Assembly: GCA_964016885.1 (NCBI GenBank)
Contig: OZ024751.1
Span: forward strand, 50,158,001-50,222,000
From: Eledone cirrhosa
Taxonomy: Eukaryota
Length of the DNA: 64,000 nt
Reading direction: 5' to 3'
Shown here: positions 16,024 through 60,531 of the stretch, one piece after another
Layout: each line of letters starts with the position of its first letter
Position numbering within the stretch: position 1 is the first letter of the stretch
Program-made: the position numbers and the translations under genes
The notes under the pieces: model-generated
What the model saw: the letters and a program-made list of their open reading frames with translations, nothing else
Databases searched by the model: none
Told to the model about the DNA's origin: nothing

Positions 16024-16220
16024 AACAAAGGAATTGTGGTAAGGAACCAGATGGACCATAACGCACCAGAGTATTCAATACTATGGGTAGTAGAGTGGGA
16101 AATAGGAAAAAGTATGACCCCGACGGCAGAGCTCAAGCCGTTTCGACAGCTATTTCTGGAGTTCAGAAATAGCCGTCGAAACGGCTTGAGTTCTGCCGTC
16201 GGGGTCATACTTTTTCTTAT
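16024..16220. mobile_element. Fold-back element, family D (78-nt tail plus ~55-bp inverted arms) in (TA)n
   Basis: Arms ataggaaaaagtatgaccccgacggcagagctcaagccgtttcgac../..gtcgaaacggcttgagttctgccgtcggggtcatactttttcttat. Contains the HHR 3' half GAAA-CGGC..GCCG-UC. Confidence 0.85.
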
Positions 16221-17075
16221 ATATATATATATATATATATATAGTAATAATAATAAAATTGAAGACTAAAATCCAAAGAGGGCTCGATAAGGAAAATATA
16301 TATCAAATATATATATGTGTGTGTGTGTGTGTGTGTGTGTGTATATATGTACATATATACATATATATACATATATATATATATATATATATATATATAT
16401 ATATATATATATATATATATATATATATATATATATATTTATATATATATATATATACATATATATACATATATATATATATATATATATATTTATTTAT
16501 ATATATATATATATATATATATATATATATTTATATATATATATATATATATATATATATATATATATATATATATATGCATATATATATATATATATAT
16601 ATTTATATATATATATATATATATATATATATATATATATATATGCATATATATATATATATATATATATATATATTTATATATATATATATATATATAT
16701 ATATATATATATATATATATATATATATATATATATATGCATGTATATATATATATCCCACCCTGTGGTCAGTCCATTATAGGTTCCTAAAGTCAGTGAC
16801 TCCTGACCGTTTCCTTTCCACGTTGCTAAGCCACAGAGACCAACTTTGAAAAATCGATATGTTTTCTCTAACCAACGCGCTACTTGCAATGCTTTGTATA
16901 GTATAGAATAATACAGCCAGTACAGTGTCTTTGTATGATTTCCTGAGTTTTCCTTGTTGTCAGATTCTCTCTTTAACTATTTGTCTATTCACTCATCTAT
17001 CTACATATGCATTCCTCTGCCTCTCAATATATATATATATATATATATATATATATATATATATATATATATATA

Positions 17076-17278
17076 CGTAGGTCCCGGGGATTGAGTCGGG
17101 GATAACCACAGTAAGTAAGGTACTCAATACATGGCAGAGTAAATTTTTTTTTATTTTATAGAAGGAGCTTCTACAGGACTAGTACTGTTTCATTCAGATG
17201 AAATCTTCAGGAAGCTCCTGAAGATTTCATCAGAATGAAACAGTACTAGTCCTGTAGAAGCTCCTTCTATAAAATAAA
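17076..17278. mobile_element. Fold-back element (74-nt tail plus ~60-bp arms) in (TA)n
   Basis: Arms 17150-17211 and 17217-17278 are reverse complements, with (TA)n on both sides. Confidence 0.85.
17164..17218 (-). ncRNA. Type I hammerhead ribozyme
   Basis: Minus strand: GGAGCUUC-CUGAAGA-uUUCAucUGAAu-GAAA-CAG uacuaguc CUG-UA-GAAGCUCC. 8-bp stem I, weak stem II. Confidence 0.75.
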
Positions 17279-17623
17279 TATATATATATATATATATATA
17301 TATATATATATATATATATATATATATATATATATATATATATATATATATATATATATATATATATATATATATATATATATATATATATATATATGTA
17401 TATATATATATATATTTAAGAATTAAACAAGATTCAATGAATACGTCAAAGAATGAATGAGTTTTACAATAGATTGGAAGCACTCTACTGAAAAAATATT
17501 TTCCAGAGTTATTAATATTAATCCAAATATTAACAAAATAGATATTCTTGTGATCAATTAGATTTTATTATACATATTTCAGAGGTACTGAATTAGGTTC
17601 AACAGTACGTCCTCATCAGATAA

Positions 17624-17772
17624 AATAAAATGATACATGACATACCCTGACATGGTAGATGGTTAAGATTTAATCAAGGTAGAGTACCTTGATTAAGATT
17701 TAATCAAGGTAGACTACCTTGATTAAATCTTAACCATCTACCATGTCAGGTTATGTCATGTTACATTTTATT
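17624..17772. repeat. Palindrome with an internal tandem duplication of its central hairpin
   Basis: catgacata.cctgacatggtagatggttaagatttaatcaaggtag pairs with its reverse complement; ttaagatttaatcaaggtaga.taccttga occurs twice. Confidence 0.8.
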
Positions 17773-18667
17773 ATATAACCATAGTTTCTTTATATTCATA
17801 CAAAATAATGACCCTGCATCTTACGAACATTGTAATTTATCTATTTTCGTAAATTCTAATATTCAGACCCTACACCTTGTATGTTCCTCTAGTTCACACT
17901 CTGAGATACCATTAAATGTTTAATTATTCGGCCATTGAACCAAACTACCTTACACTTTTGAATTCTGAATACTTTCTTTTATAGCCTATACCTCCATAAC
18001 TGTAAATATATTACACTACGCCACCTATATTGTTAACAATAACTTCATATGTCTTTTTCTACTACCCATAAGAAACCACTAATTATCCTGCACGCACTAA
18101 ATATTGCACCAACCTTTTATGTAAACATTTAACCATTAACCCCTAGCTAAAACATCTGCAAAAGATAAGTTTTGTTCAATGTTTTCACCAAGGAATAAAC
18201 TTCTTATATTTTCTTTTAATTTCCACCAGCAAATATTGCCAACCACATAGGTAATACATTTTCATAATTACCTGTTAGTCGCGACTAGTAGCATATAATT
18301 AGACTATACCAAATAATACGTTTAAATATATATAATCACACTTTAGTTGATATTTCCACGATGATTATTACACCTAAGAAATTGTATAGACACATATATA
18401 ATTATGCAAGGTTTTGTTCGGTCAGGGCTAACCATATGTTTGCACCTGAAAAGTCCCTCTCAGTGGCACCAGAAGCCACCCATTCATACAAGTCTTCCCT
18501 CTCTATACCAGCAATGTTATCCAAGAAAAAGGTAAAGGCCGATACAGCTTGGTGCTAATAACGTCACAAGCAAACTCAGAATACGAGTGGGTGTAATAAA
18601 TACCACAAATCATCATCACATCAGTCTCCCGAGCCATTCTACCAAACCAATGCCCTCAAGACGTGAT

Positions 18668-19075
18668 TTCTACTATAGACACAAAGCCAGCAATTTAGGG
18701 AGAGGGTAAAGTCGATTAAATCGACCTCAGTGCATTACTGATGCTTTATTTTATTGACCTCTTAAGGATGAGAAGTAAAGCTAACCACAGACCGTTTTGA
18801 ACTCAGACCGTAAAGGGCCGTAACTCTATACTGAGAAGCAGAGTGTCCGACGCTCTACCGATACTGCCAATCTACCTCTCTTTATTTATTAAGATAATTG
18901 TTTCTACTTTTGGCACAAGGCCAGCAATTATCCCAGTGCATTATTGGTACTTTATTTTATCGACCCCGTAAGGATTTAAGGCAAAGTTAACCTCGGCGGG
19001 ATTTGAGCTCAGTTCATAAAGGGCCGTAACTTTATGTGCAAAGCATGGTATCCGACCTTCTATCGATACTGCCAA
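18668..19075 (-). mobile_element. Two adjacent SINE family S copies (18668-18872, 18896-19075)
   Basis: Same core as 6267-6479. Confidence 0.8.
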
Positions 19076-57928: not shown

Positions 57929-58004
57929 TGGATTGTACGTGTAATTCAAAGGTCCCTTCTTGTCACATGACAAGAAGGGACCTTTGAATTACACGTACAA
58001 TCCA
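57929..58004. repeat. Perfect ~37-bp-arm palindrome next to a family C 3' UTR fragment (57797-57926)
   Basis: tggattgtacgtgtaattcaaaggtcccttcttgtca ca tgacaagaagggacctttgaattacacgtacaatcca. Confidence 0.92.
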
Positions 58005-58872
58005 TCAAACAGACTTCCACACTGTTTCTGTTTACCAGATTTCATTCACAATTCACATGCTTGAGTCAACTCATGTATATAGTAAAGAAAGTCGTGAAGA
58101 TATATTCAAATTGACTTTGACTGCATAACCCTGACTGGTGGTGCTGGTGGTGTTGCTGGTGTGGTGGTGTTTGTAATGGTGGTATTGGTGGTGTTGCTTG
58201 TGTTAATGTTGCTGATGAGGTGGGGTGGGGTGATGTTGGTGGGGGAGATCCAGATTGCCACGTAGAGAGATCAAACTCAGAACCTCATGATTGTAAAGTG
58301 AACTTAGTAATCATTCACCCACGTCAACGCTAACGCCAACAATATTTCATTAGTTTCAATGTGGCGAGGTGGACAGGTGGAAATTATGAAATAGCTGTCA
58401 TCTTGAATGTTCCTTTACCAATATTTTCTTTTCACATGATCTTTATTTTGACAAATGGATGGAAAAAACACTTTATTGTATTTATTTGTCATTGTCATTT
58501 TTCGTCTTGTGCTTTTTTTTTTTTTTTTTCAAGAATCTACTTCAAGACAAAAATATCAATGTATTTGCATTTTGCGCTAGTTTCAAAATATTTTTATTTA
58601 CTTTGGCTCACAATGATCAGACGTTTGCGCATTGGATTGCCTAAAATCCCGTTGCTAAGACGACCTTCCCGAAAGTAAATATCTGAATCGATATAGTATG
58701 TGTGTTATCAGAAAGATTATAGCTAAAAGCAACTAGAAAACTATACGGACGGAGTCTGGTGTGTACGTTTTTAATATAGAACTTACAGCGCAAATAGATT
58801 ATTGACCAACAATACAAACACATGAAGACGTATATGCACATGCAATGACATATATATATATATATATATATA

Positions 58873-59120
58873 TTAGAAAGTGAGTTTTTTTTTTTGGGGG
58901 GGGGGGTACAAAATGAAAAATAACCGAGGTGTCCTACACGAGTGAAAGTATAAAAAAAAACATGAAATCGAAAATGCAGCTGGAGTCAGACCCTCCATCT
59001 CAACACTACTTTTAAAAAGCAGAAGTACTGCGAAACCGGTAAAGGAACCAAATAAATATATATATATTTTTTTAAATAAGACTCCAGCTGCATTTTCGAT
59101 TTCATCTTTTTTTCTTTATA
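58873..59120. mobile_element. Fold-back element, family E, asymmetric copy with an HHR 3' half
   Basis: Same tail and arm ends as 27183; contains gcag aagta ctgc GAAA ccgg TA. Confidence 0.78.
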
Positions 59121-59798
59121 TATATATATATATATATATATATATAAACAAACGCCCATATACAATAAAACCTCATATACATATATATATACATATGTGT
59201 ACTTGAGTCTATGTCAATACATACATAAATGTATGCAGACACATACGTAAATACTAATCACACACGCAGCCATAAAATTACTAATAATACACACATTCAC
59301 ACTCACACACATACTTAAAACTATATATATATATGTGTGTGTGTATCTATATATACATATATATACCTATTGATTCATATATATATCTATATAAATATAT
59401 ATATATTTTATATATATATATATATATATATATATATATATATATATATATATATATATATATATATATATATATATATATATATATATGTACCTATTGA
59501 TTCATTCACATACTTATGCACAAATCCTTCGAACTTTCTTGTACCAAACAAAAACATCTTGACACTTGGTGACCGTCTCCTATTGTACGAAAGAACGTTT
59601 AAATACATCTCAAAGACATTTTATATATAAATACATATACCCTGTCAGGCATATATATATATATATGTGTGTGTGTGTGAGTGTGGGTGTGTGCATACGT
59701 ACGCATGTGTCAGTGTGTGTGTGCTCGTACAAGTGTGTATTGTCAAAAACATACACATCCATATATAGCGTCAAAATCATCATCATCATCATCATCGA

Positions 59799-60344
59799 TT
59801 GCCGTGCGTTTTCTCTGCCACCACCATCATCATCATCATCATCATCATCATCATCATCATCGATTGCCGTCCGTTTTCTCTGCCAGTGGGTGTTTAAAAT
59901 ACCATTGCACTTGAAACTTTCAAACGGAATGAGCACTTAAAATGTAAAAGCACGGGGTAGAATTTAATTTCTCAAAAGAAACGAGGCAGTACTTTCGAAG
60001 TTTCAACTGTGGTGCACGCCCACATATATACACACACACATATACATATATATATATATATATATATATATATATATATATATATATATATACATATATA
60101 TATATATATATTTCTTTTGATAAATTAAATTCTACCCCGTGCTTTTACATTTTAAGTGCTCATTCCGTTTGAAAGTTTCAAGTGCCATCGTATTTTAAAC
60201 ACCCACTGGCAGAGAAAACGGACGGAAATCGATGATGATGATGATGGTGGTGGTGGTGGTGGTGGTGATGACGACGATGACGATGATGATGCTGATGATG
60301 ATGATGATGGTGGTGGTGGTGGTGGCAGAGAAAACGGACGGCAA
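59799..60344. repeat. Inverted repeat with a (TA)n tract in the centre
   Basis: 59799-59981 pairs with 60111-60344 (the arms differ in CAT/CAC repeat length); ~42 unique nt then CA/TA in the middle. Confidence 0.88.
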
Positions 60345-60406
60345 CAATATATATATATATATATATATATATATATATATATATATATATATATATATAT
60401 ATATAT

Positions 60407-60531
60407 GATAATAAGGGCGCTGCGGAGTTGCAAATGGGTTACATATGAAAAAAGTTTGTCCTTCATCAGTGATCTTCCAAATGCCTATGATAGTTGGAAG
60501 ATCACTGATGAAGGACAAACTTTTTTCATAT
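60407..60531. mobile_element. Small fold-back element (~45-nt tail plus ~30-bp arms) in (TA)n
   Basis: atatgaaaaaagtttgtccttcatcagtgatcttccaa / ttggaagatcactgatgaaggacaaacttttttcatat. Confidence 0.8.

Follow-up and report, generated by a model that had tools for sequence, protein, structure and literature searches.

Palindromic insertions in an Eledone cirrhosa window as paired end pieces of Penelope-like elements, with a candidate transcription start at the fold point

A stretch of 64,000 nt from Eledone cirrhosa (GenBank assembly GCA_964016885.1, contig OZ024751.1, forward-strand positions 50,158,001 to 50,222,000; hereafter the window, with coordinates counted from its first letter) carries a dense set of palindromic insertions. 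Their origin from Penelope-like elements (PLEs) is close to certain. The wider reading, that the palindromes are end pieces of several PLE families inserted in (TA)n and that the short ones would be run-off complementary DNAs (cDNAs) of a capped RNA leader, appears likely from the sequence evidence. Two features are new: a strict pairing of tailed with tail-less arms and, in four families, a modal arm end on an A after a pyrimidine (Y|A), accompanied by a TATA-like box and by a G that the parent lacks.

The window has a GC content of 33% and 260 counted (TA)n runs, in a source genome of about 3.0 Gb. The initial annotation had listed sixteen insertions in it and described about 10 unrelated sequence families, most insertions being built as a tail and inverted arms with (TA)n on both sides. 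The architecture was confirmed: self-comparison and direct reading placed head-to-head inverted arms at 16 of 16 listed coordinates, a one-sided tail was present in 15 and (TA)3 on both flanks in 15 (the exception being the left flank of 20345), and the insertions fell into 11 unrelated families, labelled F1–F11. Four members in the window belong to F1 (16025, 22205, 26898 and 37144), two each to F3 (20344, 38517) and F6 (27184, 58874), and one each to F2 (17076), F4 (20561), F5 (21729), F7 (27398), F8 (36465), F9 (46218), F10 (48565) and F11 (60407). The tails range over the families from about 24 to 150 nt, instead of the 40–130 nt given at first. Two entries needed revision: 27398 is an inverted pair but a 3-kb element, not a mini-element, and the inverted pair at 46218 (given as 46217) lacks the tail asymmetry, since it has tail sequence on both arms, one of them internally deleted. 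Many insertions comprise just the last 140–320 nt of an element. One 22-nt anchor of F10 has 21,970 exact matches in the genome, and that of F2 has 1,506. Thirty genomic copies were fetched per family search, and long copies were then traced onward.

The link to PLEs is most direct for F8, whose parent, element A, lies in the window itself (51031–57407): a PLE open reading frame (ORF) of 976 aa at 54541–51611 on the minus strand, a tail at 51031–51085 and an inverted tail-less copy at 54519–57407 on the plus strand. This copy, 2,889 bp long, is 100% identical to its partner but lacks the last 55 nt. The proposal that the insertion at 36465 is the 3' end of this element proved right, as 36465–36822 matches 51031–51397 at 89%. 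Element B (41037–46185, plus strand) consists of an inverted arm (41037–41163), a 5' pseudo-long terminal repeat (pLTR; 41164–41305), frames at 41317–42531, 42396–44366 (reverse transcriptase, RT) and 44356–44856 (GIY-YIG), and a 3' pLTR with a U3-A8 hammerhead-like motif at about 46002–46040 and a tail of about 40 nt. Element C (48812–50735) is a broken PLE 3' part on the minus strand, with frames for the RT thumb and GIY-YIG. The tail asymmetry attributed to both was borne out, C having a tail of about 40 nt on the right beside a 47-bp inverted end pair. Its two ends have only these 47 bp in common; upstream, the plus arm is an open frame (50318–50872) unlike the 3' region of the minus arm. 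In Pfam searches element B gave RVT_1 and GIY-YIG above the cut-off, and element A gave RVT_1 below it (E 2.9e-4).

The suggestion that the families would extend to RT-bearing parents was likewise confirmed for most of them, as a PLE ORF lies colinearly upstream in 8 of 11 (F1, F2, F4, F5, F6, F7, F8 and F10). Copies of F1, F2, F4 and F10 are colinear through 0.8–2 kb of 3' sequence into an ORF that ends in a Cys-rich linker and a YIG-type endonuclease, with RT and a 5' pLTR also visible in long copies of F2, F4 and F10. In most of 30 genomic F7 loci the parent ORF stops immediately upstream of the arm seen in the window (28744), an endonuclease frame lies upstream in two of the three extended F5 loci, and the GIY-YIG of the F6 parent (E 8.8e-8) is 57% identical to that of element B. 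The ORFs of F1, F2, F4 and F10 had no RT or GIY-YIG match in Pfam; they are nonetheless assigned to PLEs because they show DK, YRDD, W.NPP and YIG motifs, which we take to be PLE protein motifs, because they match each other, F5 and F7 by tblastn, and because their relatives or look-alikes carry RVT_1, GIY-YIG or HTH_animal. Going by such motifs, F1, F2, F4, F5, F7 and F10 are presumably Nematis-like, and A, B and F6 Neptune-like. As far as the passages seen go, the Cys-rich linker is compatible with either clade (PMC8557442). One parent protein had 26 matches, three of them named, and all the named ones came from octopods; for the F4 alignment no relative of solved structure was found. The 3' end is repeated upstream of the ORF, as a pLTR, in element B and at loci L243 (F2), L248 (F4), L250 (F10) and L255–258 (F11). 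A 73-nt gap in L248 was considered as an intron and rejected, its GT-AG ends being absent.

The three remaining families yielded no ORF, and hence no RT followed by GIY-YIG. For F3, no ORF parent was present in 30 upstream-anchored loci, which have about 630 nt of simple-repeat-rich upstream sequence in common. F9 and F11 are both non-coding; their units, of about 330 and 615 nt respectively, show partial tandem repetition and have inverted arms. The F11 unit at L255–L258 is very young: many copies are identical over a 74-nt anchor (1,066 candidates), with PLE-type ends and no complete hammerhead.

Each family has two fixed outer ends in its genomic copies. Among the classifiable inverted copies of the 30 fetched per family, the tail-less arm ends at the family boundary in 20/20 for F1, 23/23 for F2, 17/18 for F3, 10/10 for F4, 12/14 for F5, 10/12 for F10 and 4/6 for F11. 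Pairing was counted on 105 inverted insertions met incidentally in the loci of other families, of which 31 (including all 9 of F6) were left out. The remaining 74, in which each arm could be classified, comprise 70 tail/tail-less, 3 tail/tail and 1 none/none pairs (p=1e-16 against 50%); since about half the pairs should be mixed if the two sites were used independently, this amounts to strict pairing. Fifty of the 70 tail/tail-less pairs have (TA)3 at both ends and eight at neither, against a background of 11.5% per side.

These counts also bear on the most obvious alternative, that the palindromes are miniature inverted-repeat transposable elements (MITEs) of DDE DNA transposons with TA target sites. 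Being short, palindromic, abundant and TA-flanked, they have the looks of MITEs, but the tails are one-sided, the arms vary at their 5' ends, tail/tail pairs make up 3 of 74, and the colinear extension to PLE ORFs contradicts such an origin for eight of the 11 families. Symmetric terminal inverted repeats with a transposase parent were not found; no transposase parent turned up in the family extensions, a search dedicated to transposases not having been made. A MITE origin thus has next to no probability. The fold-back read artefact was rejected for the mini-insertions, as their arms differ by 1–5% and family-fixed asymmetric ends recur at many loci. Only for element A, with arms 100% identical, might it apply, and even there the tail-less end falls on the family boundary.

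The two arms of an insertion are often unequal. In 69 pairs the tail-less arm was longer by at least 8 nt in 29 and the tail arm in 14, with the two within 8 nt of each other in 26. At the same time, the arms of one insertion have 80 variants in common where 17 would be expected from other copies (105 copies, five duplicate rows dropped), or 29 against 2 without F4. On the other side stand 289 arm-to-arm differences that are not shared, and later gene conversion could also yield shared variants. Because of the paired ends, the unequal arm lengths and the shared variants, each insertion seems to derive from one source RNA, copied into two cDNAs that ended separately.

A single cDNA that snaps back on itself and is copied would also give arms with private variants in common (25 are absent from every other copy), and many junctions indeed show 1–7 nt of microhomology or perfect palindromes. 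Here the endonuclease would trim the second arm at a fixed site, a resolution step that has been suggested as the origin of the tail in the parts of PMC8557442 available, and asymmetric junctions would be later deletions of the hairpin tip. Such an explanation fits poorly with the tail-less arm extending further 5' in 29 of 69 unbiased pairs and in 12 of 18 F3 copies, with the young family F11 among those that show it, and with junction insertions of 3–14 nt, which are common; the C-N-G linkers described below would require a 1-nt loop. We consider snap-back unlikely.

Nor do the palindromes seem to behave as units that amplify themselves. The initial annotation had proposed to see whether loop positions are shared between copies or unique to each; they are mostly unique, 113 of 128 junctions being distinct. 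Self-propagation from other minis, instead of from longer PLE ends, could explain the junctions that do recur (16 distinct among 24 copies in F2, 12 among 17 in F10), the high-copy non-coding tandem units F9 and F11, and one small F1 subfamily with no long copies among 9 arms. The recurrent junctions, however, reflect microhomology (AGCT or CTTCTGAAG) or local duplication, long copies exist in both main F1 subfamilies (8/61 and 5/25), and the TATA lies outside the minis, which leaves this explanation with a slim chance.

While the outer ends proved fixed, as first described, the arm length does not vary freely. Arm 5' ends fall within 5 nt of a single base in 66/119 arms of F1, 31/75 of F2, 34/62 of F6 and 32/91 of F10, and less so in F4 (9/38), in counts that mix targeted and incidental arms and are therefore partly query-biased. 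In F1, F2, F6 and F10 the modal base is an A preceded by a pyrimidine. The edge is sharp in F2, where 24 arms begin on the modal A, 5 one base earlier and none 2–8 bases earlier, while 25 read through. Directly before the modal A, a G foreign to the parent occurs in 34 of 54 arms, whereas arms that start elsewhere within 8 nt have it in 27 of 158 (p=1e-9; the 30 loci selected for G are excluded). Genome-wide exact counts, taken at the modal base only, gave 1,628 G versus 1,291 A+C in F10 (56%; 25% expected from composition) and 493 G versus 435 A+T in F6 (53%; 20% expected). All 30 of the F10 G loci that were inspected are true starts rather than point changes, irrespective of the sequence that precedes them, the partner arm adjoining in 22. 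Moreover, linkers of the form C-T-G, C-A-G and C-TA-G stand between two full arms at the modal A in F2, F10 and F1. Further upstream, read-through copies show what the parent carries: TATAAA at −29 in F2 (22 of 30 copies) and at −30 in F6 (8 of 8), and TATTTA at −31 in F1 (7 of 10). The TATA-like box is clear in two families and weaker in two, with a control rate of 9% of positions. The modal end, the non-parent G and the upstream box together suggest run-off from the 5' end of a capped RNA, and judging by the DNA, a transcription start is quite probably the fold point in these four families.

Several points weigh against this reading, the restriction of the genome-wide counts to the modal base among them. 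The box is weak in F10 (TATTTA in 21/72, the remainder mostly TATCCA or TATTCA), the ends examined in F3, F4, F5, F7 and F8 had no TATA close to −30, and F11 is without a modal end. The 5' pLTR of ORF-bearing copies starts at or next to the modal base in 1 of 17 for F2, 1 of 27 for F10 (within 3 nt) and 0 of 29 for F4, with many starts far upstream; this would trace the long copies to longer RNAs and oblige the model to assume two classes of RNA. The discovery loci on which the modal sites were chosen are also those behind the count of 34/54. A first hold-out gave three cases, with G in one; an unselected F2 hold-out gave G in 5 of 12, and in all five the partner arm would explain it equally well. 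YAG, the sequence expected of a splice acceptor, is present at each of the four modal sites, and two of these sites fall on the edge of helix I of the hammerhead. The F10 hold-out gave G in 2 of 2. The contigs of four runs spanned no junction and were not used.

Some of these points would suit another origin of the fold point than a transcription start: the RT might pause where the hammerhead folds, or the RNA end might be a processed one, for instance at a 3' splice site, and ordinary terminal-transferase bias would then account for the extra G. In F2 and F10 the modal base is where helix I has its 5' edge, and in F1 it lies within helix II; alongside the YAG at the four sites, an intron of D. 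virilis Penelope ends at the 5' end of helix I according to the part of PMC4209133 seen, and the long arm of element B, a single case, starts at most 4 nt from a predicted cleavage site. What speaks for transcription instead is that the AG is kept in the copies with no common upstream exon beyond the G, that the F6 site lies about 40 nt upstream of the core, that the TATA spacing is 29–31 nt in three families, and that G is enriched at the modal base only. A pause or processed end is accordingly doubtful.

If the fold point is a transcription start, the insertions might form as follows. A short capped RNA, transcribed from a promoter inside the terminal repeat of a long 3' end, would carry both RT start sites. 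The GIY-YIG endonuclease would cut both strands of (TA)n, and each 3' end would prime at one internal start site, the outer one giving the tail arm and the inner one the tail-less arm. Both RTs would probably work on one RNA molecule, the trailing enzyme displacing the leading cDNA; this one-RNA step has about an even chance. Both cDNAs would run to the RNA 5' end, often adding C opposite the cap, and their ends would be joined through microhomology, small insertions or end joining, each possibly priming the second strand of the other. With the TATA outside the copied stretch, the minis would be promoterless dead copies. A more speculative extension, to which we give a small though real chance, is that PLE integration as such is a two-enzyme, one-RNA reaction with both cDNAs ending at the cap; thousands of solo terminal repeats would then be orphan promoters feeding short capped leaders, and the (TA)n target could give single-arm minis a surrogate TATA box, so that they are re-transcribed and a class like short interspersed elements (SINEs) is born from target choice.

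The hammerhead content had been rated higher than the sequence bears out. A scan for canonical type I hammerheads gave 9 matches in the window against 0–2 in each of 40 shuffles. The statement that many arms contain the motif was too strong: a complete canonical motif is present in 4 of the 16 listed insertions, i.e. 7 of 32 arms (one arm at 17076; both at 20562, 21729 and 27398). Four of the other 12 have a degenerate or half core and eight have none. At the family level, a canonical core occurs in F2, F3, F4, F5, F7 and F9, a U3-A8 core in F1, F6 and element B (in F1 position 7 alone varies, in 5 and 3 motifs), a degenerate core in F8 (weak helices) and F10 (CAGAAGA), and a half core in F11; helix II reaches about 55–100 nt in F1, F5 and F7. 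With Rfam, no match in the window attained the gathering score, and two motif-sized stretches searched at E<=10 yielded no hammerhead. Sub-threshold microRNA (miRNA) matches were numerous in the window, among the best 150 of 394 rows of the E-value scan, and none reached the gathering score. Junctions at the hammerhead cleavage site were not seen, except possibly in the long arm of element B.

Hence the PLE part of the initial interpretation stands, with PLE ORFs in eight of the 11 families, while its description of the minis as a ribozyme system is not supported, because most minis lack a complete hammerhead, their junctions lie off the cleavage site and the architecture is that of the published PLE unit. 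We infer from the sequences that the hammerhead is carried along in the terminal repeat and need not cut.

Several further observations concern these motifs. The long arm of element B starts at most 4 nt past its predicted U3-A8 cleavage site (41150–41170, 46038–46044), one case that would fit a cleaved template. The F10 core is CAGAAGA in 148 of about 153 motifs with helices I–III still pairing (e.g. 48624–48660), probably an inactive fold kept in an abundant family. Two F3 subfamilies (11749–11936 and 37533–37719 versus 38517–38669) have the 3' strand of helix I, helix III and the tail in common but are unrelated in helix II and further upstream, which gives the ribozyme a modular look. A hammerhead-like match with canonical core outside the studied families, at 63206–63299 on the minus strand, may be chance; two U3-A8 scan matches outside these families were treated as chance, their count lying within the shuffle range (0–2).

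The individual insertions are as follows. In F1, the mini at 16025–16217 has a 77-nt tail and an arm in minus sense followed by a tail-less plus arm, with the junction inside helix II; those at 22205–22403 (a divergent subfamily) and 26898–27130 (right-hand tail) resemble it in lacking the core, and at 37144–37342 both arms reach the modal A, with a CAT linker and a non-parent C after the tail arm. A single tail-less F1 arm lies between (TA)n runs at 50932–50989 (minus strand). The F2 mini (17076–17277) has a minus-sense tail arm ending at the modal A, the 5' edge of helix I; this arm holds a canonical type I hammerhead with its core at 17210 and predicted cleavage at 17172. The F3 mini at 20344–20522 has a 58-nt tail, arms that end before the core and a left flank that is not (TA)n; that at 38517–38669 has no core, and 39061–39181 is a strongly asymmetric pair of a short tail stub and a tail-less arm. 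An F3-related tail-less arm at 11749–11936 (minus) carries a canonical hammerhead at 11831–11785 and has a relative at 37533–37719. The F4 mini (20561–21092, 97-nt tail) has canonical hammerheads in both arms (20758–20714, minus; 20994–21038, plus), as has the F5 mini (21729–22112, tail partly deleted), there with a long helix II (21920–21840, minus; 21974–22054, plus). The 3-kb inverted pair of F7 (27398–30413) has a right-hand tail of about 146 nt and, in both arms, hammerheads with a helix II of about 100 nt (27593–27454, minus; 30072–30211, plus).

F6 is represented by a mini without core (27184–27368) and an asymmetric pair (58874–59116) whose core is of U3-A8 type, with one further change in the tail-less arm. 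The F8 mini, the 3' end of element A, spans 36465–37118 with a 55-nt tail, a CUGACGA core with helix II, and weak helices I and III; a tail-less arm of the element A family lies at 1547–2477 (minus). The F9 inverted pair (46218–46448), derived from the tandem unit, lacks the core in this copy. The F10 mini (48565–48784) has a right-hand 86-nt tail and the degenerate core, and the family has left a tail stub at 16244–16293 (minus) and asymmetric pairs at 36275–36375 and 60551–60626. The F11 mini (60407–60527), from the 615-nt unit, has a 33-nt tail and the half core CUGAUGA only. Two further families carry canonical hammerheads: an asymmetric inverted pair at 17416–17776 (17619–17569, minus) and a single arm at 38839–39031 (plus; 38935–38983), the latter with a decayed relative at 30951–31145.

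Other repeats in and around the window include palindromes in which neither a tail nor (TA)n flanks are obvious (57928–58005, 62314–62404, 21595–21647, 25306–25394 and 59776–60308), a dispersed SINE-like repeat of about 200 nt (3657–4365, 6261–6484, 18664–19080, 23710–23886, 28884–29084, 32887–33102 and 36104–36275; one copy within the F7 arm), and a tandem minisatellite with units of about 40 nt (25640–26331). Loci L261–L290 belong to a different palindromic family, in which short inverted repeats are nested (1,166 candidates); several of its copies adjoin element A-type ORFs. Beside fetched elements lie intronless host-like frames, possibly retrocopies, labelled by eye as a RING-CH-type protein of 286 aa (L255:2083–2940) and a membrane-anchored one of 320 aa (L259, sense 4475–5434).

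Overall, the window shows a known class of element, densely packed and represented by many families, with a testable clue to how PLE inverted insertions form and thousands of natural products with readable junctions in one genome. Strict start-site pairing and the cap-like G make specific predictions for the in vitro PLE system and for cap analysis of gene expression (CAGE). Such palindromes would otherwise be mislabelled as MITEs or miRNA-like hairpins. In a literature search neither strict pairing nor a cap-like G was found described for PLE inversion points, most subscription papers and supplements lying outside it, so that absence from print is not shown.

The elements are ordinary in kind, since the tail plus inverted arm architecture is that of the published PLE unit. 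For PLEs with a C-terminal endonuclease, the accessible passages of Craig et al. (2021, PMC8557442) describe a pLTR, an inverted 5'-truncated copy, a one-sided tail, a (TA)n bias, a Cys-rich linker before GIY-YIG and a hammerhead in the pLTR, all also present among the window families. Here, too, RT precedes GIY-YIG in the parent, and there are a pLTR, an inverted truncated copy with tail, and a type I motif in the pLTR. The published tails measure 30–40 nt, compared with about 24–150 nt here. The same passages locate the Penelope transcription start in the pLTR, name the formation of tandem and inverted insertions as an open question, and draw no link from the inversion point to the transcription start; pairing and 5' end position are quantified here. 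For PAc Poseidon in vitro, two internal RT start sites define the tail, the target is AT-rich, both strands are cut and extended, and hammerhead mutants still insert (Frangieh et al., 2024, PMC11167929, as far as seen); inverted arms, the coupling of the two sites and the position of the cDNA ends are not addressed there.

Minimal type I hammerheads of PLEs, as described in the part of Cervera and de la Pena (2014, PMC4209133) consulted, include the U3-A8 core, opposite-strand pairs 100–700 bp apart, a long helix II and a short palindromic helix III. The topology is the same here, with the U3-A8 variant in F1, F6 and B; the differences are the helix II of about 55–100 nt (F1, F5, F7), the fixed CAGAAGA of F10 and the many minis, a majority, without a core. 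Non-coding hammerhead units derived from PLEs have been described, in the text available, as animal non-LTR retrozymes (bioRxiv 10.64898/2026.07.22.740005). F9, known here from DNA alone, resembles them: its unit is non-coding and partly tandem, measures about 330 nt, contains a type I hammerhead and has ends of PLE type. F11 differs as a tandem unit with a half core only. Inversions of the L1 retrotransposon are not known to duplicate sequence, whereas the PLE arms both cover the same stretch and can both carry the G. Twin priming of L1, like the model given here, is proposed to use two target ends that prime on a single RNA, and in the passages seen the untemplated 5' G of L1 and SVA is ascribed to cap copying and marks a full-length 5' end (PMC4859970, PMC9341517).

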